Of a DNA stretch of 7,567 nt, positions 20 through 7,091 are shown in pieces. Position numbers and translations under genes: made by a program. Location: the IMG/VR virus record IMGVR_UViG_2690316028_000015, one strand, 5' to 3'. The notes beneath the pieces are model-generated. The model saw nothing but the letters and a program-made list of their open reading frames with translations, did not search any database and was not told the origin of the DNA. The number at the start of each line of letters is the position of its first letter. Positions within the stretch are counted from its first letter, which is position 1. The stretch is from a virus. Lineage: Duplodnaviria > Heunggongvirae > Uroviricota > Caudoviricetes.

Positions 20-1315
20 TTAATTTTTCATTGCTTCGTTATGGGGCATGGTTGGGGCAAACTCGCTTAACTGTGTATTTAACAAAGCTACCTGTGCATT
101 ATTGTTTTCAGACATCCATTTTCCGTATACCTGAAATACCATTTGCGCATCTGCATGGCCCATCTGGTTTGCTATAAATGCCGGGTTAGCACCAGCTGTC
201 AGCGACCAGCAGGCATAAGTATGTCTCGACTGATATGATTTTCGATGGCGGAGTCCGGCACGTTTTATCGCTGCGTCCCACATCTGCCTTATTGAGTCAA
301 CGGTAAAATGGTCACCATAATTTTTTACTCTCGCTGACACTTCAGGTTGAAAAACAAAGGTGCATTTTTGTTTTTCTGTTCTGCCATACTCTCTGAGGTG
401 AACATCAATGATATGCTCTTTGCTCAGTCTCGTTAATGTCATCTGGCTCCGGAGAGCGTCGATTGCTGGCTTAATAAGATGAATGACCCGATTGGTTCCC
501 GCCTGTGTTTTTGGTACCGTGAAACGGTCTTTTGCTAAATTTCTCCTGATCATCATTGTTCCATTTTTCAGATCTATGTCCTCCCATCCAAGTGCACACA
601 GCTCACCAGGGCGAACGCCAGTATAAACAGAAACACACCATAAATTTTTTGCTTGCTGATTTCTGCACGCATCGATAAGACGGATAAATTCCTCCCGCGA
701 AAGAGGATCCGGAATGGTTCTTGATTCCTTTAATGGCGAGATCCCCTTAAGCGGATTATCTGGCAGGTAACCGTTATCAACACCAAACTGGAACACGGCG
801 TTAAGATTTGTCATGTAATTATTTACAGTTACAGCCGATCGCCCTGGTTGTGTAACAATATAGTTACTTTTGGGGATCTGGTATCCAGTCAGTAGCTCTT
901 TACGAACCTCCAGTAATTTTTCTTTATTAATCGATGAGGCAAGATTTTTTTCACCGATTATGCTCAGGATATTTTTGATGACGGCACGGTATGTGTTGAG
1001 TGATGTTTTGGCGACTTCAGTTTCTTTCAGTGCCAGAAATTTTTCAGCCAGTTCTTTTATGGTTAAATCTTGTCGGGCCTCACCAAATTTTTCCAGATTG
1101 CGTGAGGAGGGAAACTGTTTTGCATAGTCGAAAACACCAGTTTTTATTGCGTAACAAACAGAGGAGCGTAGTTCACCTGCAACGCGCCTGTTTTTTGCTG
1201 TGTCAGGAACCCCCAGATTTTCCCTGACTCTTACGCCTTTATAAACAAACCAGATACGTAATTTCCCTCCATGGTTTTCCACGCCTGTCGGATATTTCAT
1301 TTCAACTTCTCTCAT
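20..1315 (-). CDS. int: Tyrosine-type site-specific integrase (phage integrase)
   Basis: 431-aa ORF at the prophage edge next to xis. C-terminal catalytic-type motifs are visible (TGVRPGEL, SRHTYA, GH...VYGKW with the candidate Tyr). The second ATG at 1298-1300 (MKYPTG...) has a purine-rich GAGAGAAG upstream and may be the real start. Confidence 0.9.
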   Translation of the reverse strand: MREVEMKYPTGVENHGGKLRIWFVYKGVRVRENLGVPDTAKNRRVAGELRSSVCYAIKTGVFDYAKQFPSSRNLEKFGEARQDLTIKELAEKFLALKETEVAKTSLNTYRAVIKNILSIIGEKNLASSINKEKLLEVRKELLTGYQIPKSNYIVTQPGRSAVTVNNYMTNLNAVFQFGVDNGYLPDNPLKGISPLKESRTIPDPLSREEFIRLIDACRNQQAKNLWCVSVYTGVRPGELCALGWEDIDLKNGTMMIRRNLAKDRFTVPKTQAGTNRVIHLIKPAIDALRSQMTLTRLSKEHIIDVHLREYGRTEKQKCTFVFQPEVSARVKNYGDHFTVDSIRQMWDAAIKRAGLRHRKSYQSRHTYACWSLTAGANPAFIANQMGHADAQMVFQVYGKWMSENNNAQVALLNTQLSEFAPTMPHNEAMKN

Positions 1316-1334: not shown

Positions 1335-1586
1335 TCAAGTAAGATGACGTCTTGGTCTCGCTGATGCCTGGCGCTCAATCCAGCGATCAATTTCTTCCAG
1401 GTTGTAAAAGCATGGACTGTTATCCCATGGCATACCGTCATGAGCGACATGCTTATATTCCCTTCCTTCCATAAACGATTTTTCCCGGGCCTTTTTTAAC
1501 GTACCTTTTTTTATTCCTTTCAGCGCAATTAACTGCTCTTCGGATACCCATTTGCCGGGAGAGACAATCATGATTACTTCGCTCAT
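1335..1586 (-). CDS. xis: Excisionase-like protein (Xis / recombination directionality factor)
   Basis: 83-aa ORF immediately upstream of int on the same strand. It contains a GREY motif, which lambda Xis also has as I recall it. The position is canonical for xis. Confidence 0.7.
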   Translation of the reverse strand: MSEVIMIVSPGKWVSEEQLIALKGIKKGTLKKAREKSFMEGREYKHVAHDGMPWDNSPCFYNLEEIDRWIERQASARPRRHLT

Positions 1587-1658: not shown

Positions 1659-4130
1659 TTAAGAATCAGCCTGACTCGGGATCAGTTTTTGCCAGATAAC
1701 TGAAACGTATTTTGCCTGGTAACGGGCGTCATCAAGTGCATTATGGCGCTCACCTTCGAATGGAATAGCCGTTCTGGCATCGAAGTCTATGGCTTTCCCC
1801 AGCTCAACGATTGTGCGTACATCGCGATCGTTGTAGTAACGCCACGGGCAGGGGATCCCCTGCCGTTCGTATGAACGGCGCAAAATCGTGTTGTCGAAGT
1901 TGGCTCCATTTCCCCAAACCTGAACAAAAAATTCACCGGAGTTTTCGTCGATAAATTCCCGCAATTGTAACAGTGCATCATCTAACGGGATTTCATCGGT
2001 CATAATGGCAGATTGCGCTTCGCGTGATTGCTTAAGCCACCATTTAATGGTGTTCCGATCAATGACTCCGCCAGCAGTTTCCAGATCGATAGTCTTACTA
2101 AATTCCGGTCCCATATCTCCGGTTTGCGGATCGAAAAATATTGCACCTATTGAGATGATCGGGGCATCAGGATTTTTTCCCATGGTTTCAAGGTCGATCA
2201 TTAGATGGTCACACGTCCTGCTGGTGGATGTGATTTCGTGATGACCGTTCACCTTAATTGAGTGATCTGCCGTCTCGCCAGTTTCATTATCGCTATTGTG
2301 ATGCTGATTGCCGCCAGTGTTCTCCTTGTGTGGATGTTCAGCGCCTTCCATTTCCTCCGGATCATCTTCCTGAACTTCAACCTGATATTCTTCATCGAAT
2401 GTTTCTTGATATGTTGCGTCGCCCATCACCGCGCCACAATCAGGGCAGTTGCCGCCGCCGGTCTGACCGCAGGCGGTGCAGACTTTTTCCACTTCCTGTT
2501 GCGCCACTGGTTCAGGCTGTTTCGTTTCTGGCTCGTTTTGTAACGCATTTGTGCTGTTTTGTTCCGCTTTTTGGTAGTTCCGTTCCGATTCATGCTGGTT
2601 CTGGTTCACAGAATCGCGGGTCTGGATCCCCTTAACCCATTTCGGATCATTCGGGTCACTAATCCCTTCAACAAATTCACCACGTGATGCAGCAAGCAAC
2701 TTATCGGCGTCAGGCTGGCTGATATTGGCTGCCTGCATAATTTTGTTTACTTCGTCAGCGGTAACTTTTATCGGCTCTGGTTGTTCTGAATCTTCAGCGG
2801 TATCTACATTTTGCGGTAAGCCCGTGTATGTGCCATTTTTTCGGGCAAAATATTCTTCTTTTGTGATTTCAGTGGCGCCAGCAGCCAGTGCCTTATCCAG
2901 ACCAGAAAGTTTGTTTGCGCGACCGTATTTTTCTCCGTCCTTATCTGCGAAGAGGAAATAGAACGGCCCCTCACGCTCTACAGATGGTTCAGCTTCCGGC
3001 GCGGTTTCATTTTTTGGGATATCAGATACCTCAGTTTCCACTGCATCAGTTTGTGTTTCTGATGACTGGAGAACATCAACAGTGCCCAGGTCTGTTTCTT
3101 CATTCTCAAACACGCCCTTTGTCGTCAGGTATTCGCAGATATATTTGTTCAGTGCTATGGGATCTTTGTGAATGTCGATCGGACGCTCACGGACAAGGCC
3201 AAAAATAGTCTGGCGGTCGTAGCGAAGGGCATCAGGCTGTTTGCGCATTGATGCCGAGATACGCTTCCAGTCTTCGCGGTCGTTGTCGATAACTTCTTTT
3301 TTTGCCCAGCGATGGATGCTGCCGTCAATGTTTCCGGCATCCACATCACTAGGCCAGAGAGCGTAGGCCAGTTCGTCATCCAGTGTTTTCCATGTCTGCT
3401 TGTATTCGCGATGAATGGCAGCAATGACCGGGCTGATTTTTCCTGTTGAATTTTCAGTGTACTGTTGATTGGCTCTGGCGCGGGCGAGATCAACAACAGA
3501 CGTGTATTTTCCGGTTTCCTTGCGTTCACCTTCGCGACGTTTTTTCCAGATGCGCATCTCTGCCTGAATTTCGGGCCATTTAGCACCAGGAATACATTTA
3601 TGCTTAACCCACCCAATGGCGTGCAACTTAAGCTCCGGATACATGGCGTTAACTTCTGGCATTTTCATCAACGCTTCAACGATATGTCCGTCGAATGTTG
3701 CCATGTCTTCCTGCAACAATTCCTGTGCGCTAATAACCATATCAACGGTGATGTTTTCACATGTGTCGAACTTAACCATGACAGCGTTCTGTACTTCAGG
3801 GGCCAGCTTGTCAAAAGTGACGTTCATCGGATCGGATTCAGTCTCAACCGGGACAAAAGAAGCAGACTCCTCATCCCAGCGGTTTTCCTGCATATATTCA
3901 GCATCCCATGAATCGAGGGCAGGGCGGGGTATGCCAGGTTTATCCTCGCAGACAATAAATTTATAAGCGCAGTCCTGAGCAGCCGGATAATGTTCCAGGA
4001 ACTGCCAGTGAAATTTTGCTCGAGCACGGCGTTCGTCGCCAGCTTCAATGGCTGTGGCTACAGCCACAGCGCCTTCTTCCCTTGTTGCCAGTTCGTCAGG
4101 AATAGCGGCGCAAATAAAGACTTTACTCAT
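1659..4130 (-). CDS. ydfE: Large prophage exonuclease: N-terminal region of unknown function, Cys4 zinc ribbon, acidic linker, C-terminal DEDDh (DnaQ/RNase T-like) 3'-5' exonuclease domain; counterpart of the K-12 ydfE pseudogene
   Basis: 823-aa ORF with GAGG 10 nt upstream of the ATG at 4128-4130. C-terminal motifs MIDLET (nt 2184-2201), VWGNGANFDNT and HNALDD (nt 1728-1745) are read directly. CTACGQTGGGNCPDCG lies at nt 2436-2480. Confidence 0.85.
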   Translation of the reverse strand: MSKVFICAAIPDELATREEGAVAVATAIEAGDERRARAKFHWQFLEHYPAAQDCAYKFIVCEDKPGIPRPALDSWDAEYMQENRWDEESASFVPVETESDPMNVTFDKLAPEVQNAVMVKFDTCENITVDMVISAQELLQEDMATFDGHIVEALMKMPEVNAMYPELKLHAIGWVKHKCIPGAKWPEIQAEMRIWKKRREGERKETGKYTSVVDLARARANQQYTENSTGKISPVIAAIHREYKQTWKTLDDELAYALWPSDVDAGNIDGSIHRWAKKEVIDNDREDWKRISASMRKQPDALRYDRQTIFGLVRERPIDIHKDPIALNKYICEYLTTKGVFENEETDLGTVDVLQSSETQTDAVETEVSDIPKNETAPEAEPSVEREGPFYFLFADKDGEKYGRANKLSGLDKALAAGATEITKEEYFARKNGTYTGLPQNVDTAEDSEQPEPIKVTADEVNKIMQAANISQPDADKLLAASRGEFVEGISDPNDPKWVKGIQTRDSVNQNQHESERNYQKAEQNSTNALQNEPETKQPEPVAQQEVEKVCTACGQTGGGNCPDCGAVMGDATYQETFDEEYQVEVQEDDPEEMEGAEHPHKENTGGNQHHNSDNETGETADHSIKVNGHHEITSTSRTCDHLMIDLETMGKNPDAPIISIGAIFFDPQTGDMGPEFSKTIDLETAGGVIDRNTIKWWLKQSREAQSAIMTDEIPLDDALLQLREFIDENSGEFFVQVWGNGANFDNTILRRSYERQGIPCPWRYYNDRDVRTIVELGKAIDFDARTAIPFEGERHNALDDARYQAKYVSVIWQKLIPSQADS
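1662..2213 (-). other. DEDDh exonuclease domain within the 823-aa protein (about residues 640-823)
   Basis: The three exonuclease motifs occur in the expected order and spacing: D-x-E in MIDLET, Asp in NFDNT, H-x4-D in HNALDD. Confidence 0.7.
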
Positions 4131-4223
4131 TTTGTTTTAACCTCATGACAGATTTAAGGATGAACAAATCCCTGCCATTGCTGGCATATAAGAATGAAAC
4201 CGGATATTTATTACGGAACTGTT

Positions 4224-4415
4224 TTAAAGACCTGCCGGGATTTCGATATTATCCTGGTGAATAACTTTATCGACCGGGTAACAGTTACCGGGAATTTTCT
4301 GTTCGGTTGCTGCAGTCATACACTCCTGCATTGTCCTGTGAACACTGACTGCAATATCAACTGGCTCTCCGGAAACAAGAAAAACTGTCAGAACAAGCGC
4401 AAATGCTGAATTCAT
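4224..4415 (-). CDS. ydfD: Small hydrophobic-N-terminus protein YdfD (reported as a lysis-inducing protein of Qin)
   Basis: 63-aa product MNSAFALVLTVFLVSGEPVD... from the internal ATG at 4413-4415. AAGGA lies 8 nt upstream and the ATG overlaps the dicB stop as ATGA. The longer 81-aa ORF call is rejected because its extra N-terminus is the dicB 3' end in another frame. Confidence 0.8.
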   Translation of the reverse strand: MNSAFALVLTVFLVSGEPVDIAVSVHRTMQECMTAATEQKIPGNCYPVDKVIHQDNIEIPAGL

Positions 4416-4600
4416 TGTGCACATCCTTTTGGCATCAGACGTAAACGAGCCAGCATTGAAACAATGCATATTTTATTTAATAGCTCCCGTTCTTGTTTTC
4501 TCTTGTTAATGGCATCTTCAGTAAATACAGGGTTACTGATAGTGACACCAATTTCAAAACAACCTTCAGACGTATTAACGTTTGGTAATAACGTTTTCAT
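4412..4600 (-). CDS. dicB: Cell division inhibitor DicB (small protein, MinC-dependent division block)
   Basis: 62-aa product MKTLLPNVNTSEGCFEIGV...MPKGCAQ from the ATG at 4598-4600, with GAGGA 7 nt upstream. The sequence matches my memory of K-12 DicB. The 97-aa ORF call has no RBS at its start. Confidence 0.85.
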   Translation of the reverse strand: MKTLLPNVNTSEGCFEIGVTISNPVFTEDAINKRKQERELLNKICIVSMLARLRLMPKGCAQ

Positions 4601-4769
4601 TATCGCGTCCTCAACAATGAATTTTGTGATGCAGTGCCTGGTGCCTCCAGGTGACGTTAACCAGTTAACAATTAACGCCGGATACAGAGAATCCACCCAT
4701 AACACTGTTTTTGGTTTTAACTGTTCCGCGTGCGCTTAGCCGCATTCACCGCATCACAAAATTCACTTT

Positions 4770-4827
4770 AAAAACGGCGGCAGAGCAGTCACGGAGTAAA
4801 ACTGATACCGCCAAACGTCACCAGAAA
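4770..4827 (-). ncRNA. dicF: DicF small regulatory RNA (Hfq-dependent, targets ftsZ and other mRNAs), including its 3' stem and U-tail
   Basis: The reverse complement of 4770-4827 reads TTTCTGGTGACGTTTGGCGGTATCAGTTTTACTCCGTGACTGCTCTGCCGCCGTTTTT. This matches the DicF sequence as I recall it, ends in a GC-rich stem plus T-run, and lies about 170 nt upstream of dicB. Confidence 0.75.
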
Positions 4828-5102
4828 ATTGATAACAGAGGGCGTTGCAGCGGGGTTGTCACTTAAGCGTATGGTCAACCTGACAACTCGGTGTCCTCAA
4901 CGGGGAAGGAATAACCCCGCCATACTTACCGCCGCGCCATTTCGCGGGTTGCCACAACCGGAAGCGCACGGTCGAATTAAATTTAACGACACCGTACAGT
5001 GAGACGAACTTCGCCGTGCGCTTTCGTGTTGTGTGCCTGCTTTTAACCACGTCAGGCGAGGTGGTATCCTTCTTATTCCGAATAACCAAGAAGGAAATCT
5101 AT

Positions 5103-5303
5103 ATGACTAAAGAAGAATTTGTCTCTTATATTTTTGATAAAACGGTTGAAATGTATGCCGCTACTTACGGGTCCTGTAATCCTCTGAATAAACCAGAGGG
5201 GAAAGATGATTTCGACAAAATTTACCGCTTCTTGGAGGACCGCTATATCAAAAGGTTAGAGGACGCAGGGATCAAATCCCCAGTGAAGTCACCATTGTCC
5301 TGA
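5103..5303 (+). CDS. Hypothetical small acidic protein (66 aa), antisense to the dicB operon; candidate moron
   Basis: ATG at 5103 with AAGGA 7 nt upstream. The product is a balanced charged sequence (MTKEEFVSYIFDKTVEMYAATYGS...), and the ORF is noticeably more AT-rich than the GC-rich region to its left. Its 3' end overlaps the convergent 5272-5637 ORF by 32 nt. Confidence 0.4.
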   Translation: MTKEEFVSYIFDKTVEMYAATYGSCNPLNKPEGKDDFDKIYRFLEDRYIKRLEDAGIKSPVKSPLS

Positions 5304-5637
5304 GAACTTGCAGGACGTCATGATCGTAACTTCCATCCAAACCGCGACGGCAAATTGCTTCTCGTATTACCGGAAGCAGTTCGCTGGAAATCTCGGTGCA
5401 TATTTCACCTGCTAATACGCCTGGCTCAAGTGAGAATATTGGTGAACTTACGGTCTTGGTCTCTACAGTTTCAGAGTCAGTGCCAACATTATAAAGCTCA
5501 ACGAAAGCGGTCTTGATTTTCCGGGCCAGATCTTTTGCTGGCTCGCTTGCAATATCTTTCCCGATTTCTCGCAGCACAGAATGCAATGTATGAGCTGCTG
5601 TTTTCTGTACATCAGACGGTAAATCTTTAAATTCCAT
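5272..5637 (-). CDS. Hypothetical acidic protein (121 aa) in the ydfB/ydfC position
   Basis: ATG at 5635-5637 is preceded by GAGG at 6 nt. An upstream in-frame ATG at 5647-5649 overlaps the ydfA stop as TGATG, so the start is ambiguous (121 or 125 aa). No recognisable motif. Confidence 0.6.
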   Translation of the reverse strand: MEFKDLPSDVQKTAAHTLHSVLREIGKDIASEPAKDLARKIKTAFVELYNVGTDSETVETKTVSSPIFSLEPGVLAGEICTEISSELLPVIREAICRRGLDGSYDHDVLQVLRTMVTSLGI

Positions 5638-5648
5638 CGTCAGCCTCA

Positions 5649-5801
5649 TCAGTCAGTGTTTCTGGCTAACCAGCAACGCGCGCCAGATTCGGTTTTAAAC
5701 GTTTTGCTTTTGGTATATGTCATCGCGGTGAACGTACCGTCCTGGTTGGGGAACACGCCACATACCAGAGATTCGCTGTTGCCAAGATCGATAGTATCCA
5801 T
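5649..5801 (-). CDS. ydfA: Small protein YdfA-like (50 aa), first gene of the leftward operon
   Basis: Internal ATG at 5799-5801 with GAGG 6 nt upstream. The 102-aa extension would begin upstream of the operator/promoter and is rejected. The product MDTIDLGNSESLVCGVFPNQDGTFTAMTYTK... has the size and position of K-12 YdfA. Confidence 0.65.
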   Translation of the reverse strand: MDTIDLGNSESLVCGVFPNQDGTFTAMTYTKSKTFKTESGARCWLARNTD

Positions 5802-5877
5802 GCTGACCTCATTTCCCCTTAACGCCGGGGTAGCGGAACTGTTTGCTGAGAACACCGTGCGGTGTGTTGATGGAGGT

Positions 5878-5930
5878 AATTTAGTTTTCTCATTATTTTT
5901 CGTCAAGGTTTTTTGATGAGAAAACTCAAG
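5878..5930 (-). promoter_or_regulatory. Leftward early promoter with two operator copies (OL/PL-like, PdicB equivalent)
   Basis: On the minus strand: -35 TTGACG (plus coordinates 5901-5906), 17-nt spacer, -10 TAAATT (5878-5883). Operator TGAGAAAACTCA at 5917-5928 and a one-mismatch copy TTAGTTTTCTCA at 5881-5892 overlap the -10/spacer. Confidence 0.55.
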
Positions 5931-5993
5931 TATTGGCGCAAGATAAAGCCAATACATTGAAATGTAAGGCTTTAAAATTTTGTGAAGGGATGA

Positions 5994-6401
5994 TTATTGA
6001 TGCTTGTTGCGTTTGCGAGCCTCTAATAGCTCGGTGAACAGGCGATTAAAATTCTCAACGCGGGCGCGGAGTTCGCTGAGTTGTGCTTGTTGCTCTGATT
6101 TAGGAAGTGCGCGATACAAACGCAGCATCTCTAACTCATCTTCCGATAAGTCTAAGGCACTATCGAGTGAAACAGGGGGAGCTGGTGTTTTGTCCTCGTC
6201 GCCAAACAGTATCCAGGTTGGTGAACATTGCAATACCTCGGCGAGGCGATGCAAATTTTGCCCACGCGGGGCTGTATGGTCACTTTCCCATAATGAAATT
6301 GATGAGCCAGATACGCCAGCAGCTTTGCTTAAACCGTTTTGACTTAAGCCTACCTGCTTACGTCTTTCTCTAATGCGTTGACCTAAAGTTTTCTCGTTCA
6401 T
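5994..6401 (-). CDS. dicA: DicA-family HTH (XRE/cI-like) repressor of the leftward operon
   Basis: 135-aa product from the ATG at 6399-6401, with an N-terminal HTH (LGQRIRERRKQVGLSQNGLSKAAGVSGSSISLWE) and the segment SPTWILFGDEDK that I recall from K-12 DicA. It lies between the two operator clusters. The 152-aa call adds 17 residues that run into the operator region. Confidence 0.85.
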   Translation of the reverse strand: MNEKTLGQRIRERRKQVGLSQNGLSKAAGVSGSSISLWESDHTAPRGQNLHRLAEVLQCSPTWILFGDEDKTPAPPVSLDSALDLSEDELEMLRLYRALPKSEQQAQLSELRARVENFNRLFTELLEARKRNKHQ

Positions 6402-6478
6402 ATTTAGATATCTTAATAACCCTTGACTTGAGATTCCTTGAGTGATTAGCATTGAGAAAACTCAATATTGGAGGTGCG
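6402..6478. promoter_or_regulatory. Divergent promoter/operator region between the repressor and the cro-like gene (OR-like)
   Basis: Perfect 14-bp palindrome TTGAGAAAACTCAA at 6452-6465 plus TTGAG-containing repeats at 6428 and 6438. Candidate rightward -35 TTGACT at 6423-6428, and GGAGGTG RBS at 6470-6476 for dicC. Confidence 0.55.
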
Positions 6479-6706
6479 ATGTTTAAATCAGACGTAATTA
6501 ATTTTTACGGTACGAAAGCCAAAGTAGCGAAAGCTGCTGGCGTTGACCCATCTGCTGTTTCTCAATGGCAAGAGCTGGTTCCTGAAGGTCGCGCGATGCG
6601 TCTACAGGAGGCATCTGGCGGCGAGCTTCTGTATGATCCCAAGGTTTATGACGAATATCGTAAGACGAAGCGGGCGGGGCGGTTGAACAATGAAAATCAC
6701 TCCTGA
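6479..6706 (+). CDS. dicC: Cro-like small HTH regulator (DicC/YdaS-type)
   Basis: 75-aa product from the ATG at 6479, with a strong GGAGGTG RBS. It is transcribed divergently from the repressor. The TTG start at 6452 in the ORF track lies inside the operator palindrome and is rejected. Confidence 0.8.
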   Translation: MFKSDVINFYGTKAKVAKAAGVDPSAVSQWQELVPEGRAMRLQEASGGELLYDPKVYDEYRKTKRAGRLNNENHS

Positions 6707-7091
6707 ACAGGCTCGTGAGGCTCTGGATGCCTGGATATGTCGACCAGGAATGACACAGGAGCAGGCGACGATATTAATCACTGAAGCATTCTGGGCTTTG
6801 AAAGAGCGCCCGAACATCGATGTTCAGCGTGTCACAGATGAAGGTGGCGCGGTTGATCAGCGAGCGCTTGGCGTTAATCGAGTGAAGATATTCGAACGCT
6901 GGAAGGCTATCGACACTAGGGATAAGCGTGAAAAGTTCACGGCGCTAGTGCCTGCAATTATGGAGGCTACAGCGAGATCCATTCTGGGTAAAAAACATCA
7001 TGAGCCCGTCAAAACTCCGCGAAAAATGGGACGAACTGGTCATCCGCTTGGGACGTTCACCTGTACAGCGTTGTGTGAATCATATTTCTGA
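6690..7091 (+). CDS. Hypothetical early-right protein in the cII/YdaT position (133 aa)
   Basis: ATG at 6690 overlaps the dicC 3' end by 17 nt. The position immediately after the cro-like gene is as in Rac ydaS-ydaT. No motif I can name. Confidence 0.6.
   Translation: MKITPEQAREALDAWICRPGMTQEQATILITEAFWALKERPNIDVQRVTDEGGAVDQRALGVNRVKIFERWKAIDTRDKREKFTALVPAIMEATARSILGKKHHEPVKTPRKMGRTGHPLGTFTCTALCESYF

Follow-up and report, generated by a model that had tools for sequence, protein, structure and literature searches.

The dicF, dicB and ydfD genes of a Qin-like lambdoid prophage: identity, linkage and a possible structured leader

A viral stretch of 7,567 nucleotides (here called the window; IMG/VR record IMGVR_UViG_2690316028_000015) carries three small genes next to each other on its minus strand, which had been described in a first-pass annotation as a DicF-like small RNA, DicB and YdfD arranged as a coupled toxic cargo module. 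This raises the question which locus this is, and whether the tight coupling of the two reading frames does reflect the reported ability of DicB to counteract the toxicity of YdfD. The three genes almost certainly belong to the dicBF operon, as its dicF-dicB-ydfD segment, and this operon is in turn the early-left (pL-type) operon, under repressor control, of an Escherichia prophage of the Qin-like lambdoid kind. The locus is thus a near-identical copy of one of the best-studied E. coli prophage loci and as such already known, and every function which had been claimed for it is already published for K-12. The new element is a linkage survey which measures how tightly dicB and ydfD travel together. 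Identity to the K-12 sequence, gene order and linkage across relatives were established in the present analysis, while the molecular activities of DicF, DicB and YdfD described below are those of the K-12 molecules, and would be expected here from sequences which are identical or one residue apart.

The three genes and their products

About 850 nucleotides, from the pre-DicF leader to past ydfD, align with the Qin prophage of K-12 at approximately 99% identity, and identical DNA is annotated by RefSeq as ydfD and dicB in many genomes. The Rfam, Pfam and NCBIfam scores and the identities to K-12 given in the following are so high that a chance resemblance is excluded. The coordinates of all features are collected in Table 1.

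Table 1. Features of the window and the evidence on which their assignment is based
Feature	Position	Strand	Evidence
Integrase	20-1315	-	
Excisionase	1335-1586	-	
823-aa exonuclease, Rv2179c-like domain	1659-4130	-	
Weak terminator-like hairpin and T-rich run downstream of ydfD	4173..4186	-	Pattern scan
ydfD, dicB, dicF (whole block)	4224-4827	-	
ydfD, 63 aa, DUF1482 family, hydrophobic N-terminus	4224..4415	-	PF07358, K-12 identity
ATGA overlap of dicB stop and ydfD start	4412..4415	-	Sequence; 4-nt overlap kept in 90/94 DicB-type loci
dicB, 62-aa cell-division inhibitor acting through MinC	4412..4600	-	PF05358, NF049927, K-12 identity
dicF-dicB spacer, 174 nt, putative structured 5' leader of dicB	4601..4774	-	MFE fold; consensus fold; sub-threshold STnc100 match
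U-tail of the DicF intrinsic terminator, TTTTT	4770..4774	-	Sequence; fold
dicF, 53 nt	4775..4827	-	RF00039, 72.5 bits; 52/53 bases as in K-12 dicF
pre-DicF (190-nt species), putative 5' part	4828..4964	-	K-12 alignment; processing from PMC10448788
66-aa ORF	5103-5303	+	
121-aa ORF	5272-5637	-	
YdfA-like DUF1391 protein, 88% identical to YdfA	5649-5801	-	
Candidate early-left promoter TTGACG-17-TAAATT, between repressor gene and ydfA-like gene	5878..5906	-	Scan; K-12 alignment
DicA-type repressor, 57% identical to K-12 DicA	5994-6401	-	Pfam HTH_3; BLASTP
DicC/Cro-type gene, 70% identical, divergently transcribed	6479-6706	+	
Truncated YdaT-like gene	6690-7091	+	
DUF977 gene	from 7169	+	

The small RNA with a 3' stem and U-tail which had been proposed for the minus strand was recognized by the Rfam DicF model (RF00039) over its whole length (model positions 1-52 of 52, window positions 4775-4826) with 72.5 bits as compared to a gathering score of 48 (E = 5.7e-15), and it was the sole Rfam match at gathering threshold in a scan of the whole window. 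The extent of the gene was set with the 53-nt K-12 annotation as reference. Bases 1-52 are identical to K-12 and the last base alone differs, a change from C to G at a position which is unpaired in the Rfam structure; the allele with the terminal G is the second commonest among the IMG/VR loci analysed. According to the Rfam structure line and to folds, DicF consists of a 5' single-stranded seed followed by a 3' G+C-rich terminator hairpin (GGCGGUAUCAG...CUGCUCUGCCGCC), and the run of five T expected of the U-tail follows directly. The 5' end of dicF is located 227 nt before the ATG of dicB, a spacing which is the same in K-12.

In K-12, a DicF precursor of 190 nt is yielded by RNase III, which forms its 5' end, and the 53-nt form is yielded by RNase E, which subsequently cleaves at the 5' end of DicF (PMC10448788). 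The 190-nt species would by homology occupy the corresponding positions of the window. Near-identity to K-12 begins at about position 4990, with divergent sequence upstream, and therefore the whole precursor lies inside the conserved block. DicF pairs with ftsZ via its 3' region and with xylR via its 5' end, and both DicF and DicB are toxic (PMC5069750), which agrees with the earlier description of both as deleterious blockers of division. Two further RNA features were looked for around DicF. A C4-type antisense RNA in the pre-DicF leader, prompted by the "dicF-like region" of P1, gave no Rfam match up to an E value of 10. Long-range pairing of the pre-DicF leader with the spacer, in the manner of the RNase III stems of rRNA and enclosing DicF, was suggested by 9 nt of complementarity seen by eye, but a fold of 411 nt pairs the spacer with itself.

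The 62-aa product proposed to be DicB is identical to the K-12 protein in 62 of 62 residues, and scores 136.8 bits against 27 with Pfam PF05358 (E = 1.9e-40); with NCBIfam NF049927 the score is 132.8 bits, above the cut-off of 100. It starts at an internal in-frame ATG and not at the beginning of the longer open reading frame, and an internal start is also used by dicB of K-12 (Cam 1988, as cited in PMC8835842). The alternative of a 97-aa, GTG-initiated reading frame, as annotated in phage HannyBb, was rejected: it begins in the variable part of the spacer, and the insertions and deletions among homologues are not multiples of three. DicB needs MinC for the division block as well as for the exclusion of phages which inject via ManYZ (PMC6832061), and this work on K-12 agrees with the annotation's statement on protection against phages dependent on the mannose transporter.

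The assignment of the 63-aa product to YdfD holds equally, with 62 of 63 residues identical to K-12 (the lone change is V6A) and a match to PF07358/DUF1482 of 92 bits against 25 (E = 2.1e-26). Judged from the K-12 protein, it is probably the lysis protein reported to inhibit IspG. In K-12 YdfD lyses the cells by IspG inhibition and either DicB or SulA prevents this lysis, as had been stated in the annotation for lysis and for DicB, and the authors of that work already noted that dicB and ydfD overlap inside one operon (PMC8835842). The shared ATGA of stop and start codon can be read directly in the sequence of the window, and a Shine-Dalgarno-like AAGGA is found within dicB, 8 nt upstream of the ydfD ATG.

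The operon and its prophage

The order int, xis, exonuclease, ydfD, dicB, dicF, ydfA-like gene, DicA-like repressor and divergent DicC/Cro-like gene is the early-left order of the Qin type, and in RefSeq the same gene order is found adjoining rspB in the genomes E24377A and WP8-S17-ESBL-05. In K-12, transcription starts from dicBp, a pL-like promoter repressed by DicA, and runs through ydfABC, dicF, dicB and ydfD; an internal promoter was not detected in this operon, and its transcripts were seen to end either at the DicF terminator or after ydfD (PMC10448788). A scan of the minus strand of the window from position 4000 to 6500 yielded the candidate promoter of Table 1 as the sole promoter-like site, the putative equivalent of dicBp. 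In the K-12 alignment its TTGAC coincides with the same bases and the transcribed leader is retained, whereas the surrounding sequence, where the operators would lie, differs, which fits a different immunity type. The DicA-type repressor is presumed to hold the operon silent; with no more than 57% identity to DicA, it may respond to other inducing signals than in K-12. At the other end, the hairpin downstream of ydfD is a candidate for the 3' end of the ydfA...dicF-dicB-ydfD transcript, in a pattern scan in which the count of terminator-like sites was not above that of shuffled sequences. A CCUGG-AGGCA-CCAGG hairpin was considered as a boxB/nut antitermination site and found unsupported, being located downstream of the DicF terminator, where it cannot aid read-through of that terminator.

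Taken together with the K-12 experiments, this arrangement suggests the following course of events. In the lysogen the DicA-type repressor would shut the promoter about 1 kb upstream, and derepression would lead to a single polycistronic RNA, from which RNase III and RNase E would excise the 53-nt DicF, its 3' end coming either from its own terminator or, upon read-through, from processing. DicF would then act with Hfq to repress ftsZ (via its 3' region) and the xylR, pykA and manX mRNAs. On read-through transcripts, which would also carry dicB and ydfD, DicB would be made, bind MinC and go with it to the septum, where the FtsZ ring would be dissolved; the same interaction of DicB with MinC would block ManYZ and thereby exclude phages injecting their DNA via ManYZ. 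YdfD would be translated from the start codon overlapping the dicB stop, inhibit IspG and lyse dividing cells, an effect which would be masked as long as DicB (or SulA) halts division.

Among complete E. coli genomes there is no match of 100% to the window. The best matches are 99.8% identical and 1,024 bp longer, and these absent 1,024 bp carry the C-terminus of ydaT and the O replication gene. The copy in the window is therefore a deletion derivative, i.e., a defective prophage. For annotation, the locus shows that the window represents the left arm of a Qin-type prophage which has lost its O replication gene but retains intact exonuclease, xis and int genes.

All three genes were identified as proposed, and in this respect the description stands, while the word cargo is loose. 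Taken strictly, it would mean an accessory, moron-like defence module outside the early programme of the phage, selected by the host and kept for the exclusion of ManYZ-dependent phages by DicB. Such exclusion is published (PMC6832061), and the block from 4150 to 4900 is found in 4655 of 5426 complete E. coli genomes (86%), at a median of two places per genome and often in several copies, including defective prophages such as Qin of K-12 and the present deletion derivative. The block is, however, not bracketed by a promoter/terminator pair, it is situated between the repressor and exo-xis-int, and the arrangement is the same in the deposited phages HannyBb, Tritos, mEp460 and the vB_Eco series; moreover, exclusion would need derepression, as the repressor keeps the operon silent. 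The corresponding operon position, from repressor to exo-xis-int, is occupied by kil in lambda. Selection by the host as a defence module is thus considered unlikely. Because the genes lack their own promoter, belong to a repressor-controlled early-left operon and are arranged in the same way in deposited phage genomes, "repressor-controlled early phage genes" is a more apt name for them than cargo.

Linkage of dicB and ydfD

In the survey, viral contigs of IMG/VR were scanned with a 22-nt spacer motif and the loci obtained were analysed by script. There were 94 loci with a DicB-type first reading frame, followed in 92 by a YdfD-like reading frame, in 90 with the 4-nt overlap, numbers which do not represent independent events, as many of these prophages are near-identical. 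The linkage spans DicB identities from 55 to 100% and YdfD identities from 40 to 100%, and canonical DicF is found upstream in about 80 of 91 DicB loci. In a phage collection, dicB abuts a ydfD homologue in all 20 phage records encoding DicB. An example of a diverged locus is that of the PPompW prophages of O157 strains, in which DicB is 61% and YdfD about 50% identical to the proteins of the window, with the 4-nt overlap kept and DicF present. In a Shigella flexneri copy ydfD is frameshifted, with dicB and dicF intact. A search of genome contigs for DicB yielded Escherichia and Shigella only, plus one Veillonella-labelled contig of a metagenome-assembled genome which is probably misbinned. 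YdfD-family proteins occur in other genera without DicB or DicF, as shown by eight phage records (Klebsiella, Salmonella, Citrobacter) which have their YdfD homologue in the corresponding place of the operon; in the records of these genera which were examined, other small reading frames overlap or abut the YdfD homologue upstream.

The linkage of dicB and ydfD is therefore real, and the tight association of the two genes described in the annotation is supported by it (92/94 viral loci and 20/20 phage records); the overlap is not specific evidence that DicB counteracts YdfD, and by itself does not show that DicB is placed to buffer YdfD. The ATGA may reflect no more than the dense packing and translational coupling common among early genes of phages, with no specific tie to DicB offsetting YdfD. 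At the equivalent position, 20 Rac-type loci have an overlap of 7 nt between kilR and ydaE, a 37-aa reading frame shares 4 nt with the Klebsiella YdfD homologue, and a 66-aa reading frame abuts the Salmonella homologue; ydfD has the Shine-Dalgarno motif of its own mentioned above, and masking of YdfD lysis by SulA as well as by DicB indicates an indirect effect (PMC8835842). Against this reading, the two genes stay adjacent at 55% and 40% identity in the loci and records just counted. This adjacency kept through divergence suggests selection on the pair, a pattern which a shared recombination history could give as well, and generic compaction is on the whole regarded as quite possible, somewhat short of an even chance.

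Another reading takes the two genes for a toxin-antitoxin pair in which YdfD is the toxin and DicB its antitoxin. The genes are small, adjacent and overlapping, and co-expression of DicB prevents YdfD lysis (PMC8835842), as would be expected of an antitoxin; DicB is itself highly toxic, however (PMC5069750), its protection is indirect, with SulA acting likewise, and YdfD homologues exist without DicB in other genera. This reading was rejected as highly improbable, on the grounds of the indirect protection and of the lack of any promoter-like site adjoining the pair in the scan of the window, none being known in K-12 either (PMC10448788).

The leader of dicB and related loci

The spacer between dicF and dicB may be a structured 5' leader. 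In the minimum free energy fold of positions 4590-5000 (411 nt) it pairs with itself, with a z-score of -3.8 and none of 100 shuffled sequences folding as well. A long closing stem, AAAGUGAAUUUUGUGAUGCGGUG with CACUGCAUCACAAAAUUCAUUGUU, has about 15 pairs in the consensus and as many as 29 or so in the fold of the window sequence itself, and encloses three or four hairpins; the U-tail of DicF at 4770-4774 doubles as the 5' edge of this stem, and its 3' strand stops just before the Shine-Dalgarno sequence of dicB. A consensus fold of 56 distinct homologues contains 36 pairs, nine of them with one-sided changes which keep a standard pair and two with compensatory changes; the covariation term amounts to -0.83 kcal/mol. 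A conserved structure of the spacer is plausible from these models, although there is so little sequence variation that covariation lends it weak support.

With relaxed thresholds, the STnc100 model of Rfam (RF02076) matches positions 4568-4777 in full length (1-206) with 34.5 bits (E = 7.8e-6), below its gathering score of 47, and copies of the leader from Rac-type loci score 28-44 bits. STnc100 and PasD are related prophage small RNAs according to a 2026 preprint. The leader consists of two nearly invariant blocks with a hypervariable insert between them. It also directly precedes kilR in four phages (Rac-SA53, Shigella phage 75/02 Stx, PhiR5_2 and an Actinobacillus-labelled phage), two of which (Rac-SA53 and PhiR5_2) have a sub-threshold DicF-like hairpin in front of it. 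The leader thus stands before the genes of two inhibitors which are unrelated to each other, DicB and KilR, and both are less conserved than the leader itself. As far as the literature searched shows, the leader common to dicB and kilR is the only part of the locus without a functional study; for kilR it is published that expression is gated by Rho/NusG-dependent termination.

These observations point, tentatively and with rather low confidence, to a cis-acting RNA which is conserved and structured and has STnc100 and PasD as distant relatives. The geometry of its closing stem, reaching from the U-tail of DicF to the ribosome-binding region of dicB, would allow RNase III cleavage, or read-through of the terminator, to tie the formation of the DicF 3' end to how stable the dicB message is or how well it is translated. 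If this were true, the leader would define a portable cassette of lambdoid phages consisting of a small RNA head, the leader and a division inhibitor.

The closest of the known systems is the dicBF operon of K-12 Qin (ydfABC-dicF-dicB-ydfDE; b1571-b1577), which is about 99% identical from some 160 nt upstream of dicF to past ydfD and shares with the window the ATGA overlap and a divergent immunity region of the DicA/DicC type; the neighbourhood of rspB, likewise as in K-12, is found in the closest genomes of the window. In K-12 ydfE and intQ are pseudogenes and interrupted by IS2, whereas the exonuclease (823 aa), xis and int of the window are intact, the start of the exonuclease being the start of pseudogene ydfE in the alignment. 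The window has the 121-aa reading frame and the 66-aa reading frame on the opposite strand instead of ydfB and ydfC, its repressor is diverged from DicA to the extent given in Table 1, and the deletion of 1,024 bp has removed O. Such differences are ordinary lambdoid mosaicism. The gene order of the window is also that of the lambdoid phages with dicB, i.e., HannyBb (PP925841), Tritos (OV696610), mEp460 and PhiR42_1, with HannyBb being 99.4% identical over positions 4150-5000; these are complete phage genomes with the O replication gene which the window has lost.

The kil gene of the pL operon of lambda is a counterpart by analogy: it is early-left and under repressor control, and it inhibits the formation of the FtsZ ring. 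To our knowledge it has no sequence relationship to the locus, and we know of no small RNA partner in lambda. A related arrangement is the kilR region of Rac-type prophages and Stx phages, with the order DicF-like hairpin, leader, kilR, ydaE, racC and recE. The small RNA head differs there in its 5' seed and scores 41 and 29.5 bits, below the cut-off for DicF, and KilR takes the place of DicB and the zinc-finger-like YdaE that of YdfD. The leader is the same, with the blocks AAAGUGAAUUUUGUGAUGCGGUGAAUGCGGCU...CGCACGCGGAACAGUUAAA and CCGGCGUUAAUUGUUAACUGGUUAACGUCACCUGGAGGCACCAGGCAC nearly invariant, and as in the window it is located after a terminator hairpin and before a division inhibitor with an overlapping small reading frame.

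The leader shared by dicB and kilR

The spacer between dicF and dicB is a conserved leader whose structure is closed by a long stem. Comparison of this spacer with the Rfam family STnc100 yielded a full-length match with a sub-threshold score. The same leader precedes kilR, which encodes a division inhibitor unrelated to DicB, in Rac-type and Stx phages, and it is better conserved than the proteins encoded downstream of it, DicB or KilR. The coordinates of all the features are collected in the table.

Features of the window and of comparison loci (L-numbers)
Feature	Locus	Position	Strand	Remark
823-aa exonuclease	window	1659-4130	-	intact
dicF-dicB spacer	window	4601-4774	-	structured leader
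pre-DicF precursor, 5' part	window	4836-4958	-	
66-aa ORF	window	5103-5303	+	phrog_34441
121-aa ORF	window	5272-5637		
Deletion junction	window	about 6965-6969		5-bp microhomology
P1 ban operon leader	L005	2501-2595		annotated "dicF-like region"
Broken ydfD, Shigella flexneri	L008	1686-1873		
Alternative sRNA head, Escherichia albertii	L011	1276-1330		
YdfD/DUF1482 homologues of Klebsiella, Salmonella, Citrobacter phages	L013; L015; L014	2391-2692; 2391-2692; 2301-2698		
Leader copies before kilR	L016; L017; L018; L019	1474-1663; 1467-1665; 1467-1661; 1474-1658		

Relatives of DicF and YdfD

Sequences 78-89% identical to the 5' part of pre-DicF were found in Stx2c phages, cdtI, Ayreon and 2H10, and a match in the same range in the leader of the ban operon of phage P1, the one locus among these that was scanned for canonical DicF, which was not found there. 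In the E. albertii locus and in IMG/VR loci the position of DicF is held by alternative sRNA heads, which differ from DicF in their 5' seeds or loops and maintain the GGCGG...CCGCC terminator stem through compensatory changes. The head of E. albertii, which scores below the Rfam cut-off for DicF, retains the 5' seed of DicF and has a different 3' stem-loop, this being the region that pairs with ftsZ.

In the Shigella flexneri locus ydfD is split into three reading frames, with dicF and dicB intact. The homologues in Klebsiella, Salmonella and Citrobacter phages (34-44% identity) occupy the same early-left position as ydfD in the window, and neither DicB nor DicF is present beside them. In the Klebsiella phages the homologue is preceded and overlapped by a 37-aa ORF. 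This ORF is similar to the N-terminal portion of a longer, 94-aa ORF that has a YdaE-like C-terminus and, in a few IMG/VR loci, comes after the leader shared by dicB and kilR. An Escherichia-type dicF-dicB-ydfD block with a 95% identical DicB was also found on a 22.9-kb contig binned as a Veillonella parvula metagenome-assembled genome, a label which probably reflects misbinning or contamination.

Neighbouring genes and a deletion

The 66-aa ORF, for which Pfam yielded no match, is read in the direction opposite to that of the early-left operon and shares bases with the 121-aa ORF at the 3' end of the latter. Small ORFs on the opposite strand occur at the equivalent position in PPompW prophages, Rac-SA53 and an Actinobacillus-labelled phage.

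The window lacks 1,024 bp present in the closest E. coli genomes and in phage HannyBb. Since the O replication gene and the C-terminus of a YdaT/CII-like gene are lost with this segment, the prophage copy should be replication-defective.

The exonuclease downstream of ydfD carries a C-terminal Rv2179c-like 3'-5' exoribonuclease domain, and its start coincides with that of ydfE of K-12. While ydfE is a pseudogene disrupted by IS2, its counterpart in the window is intact and provides a picture of the K-12 gene prior to this disruption.
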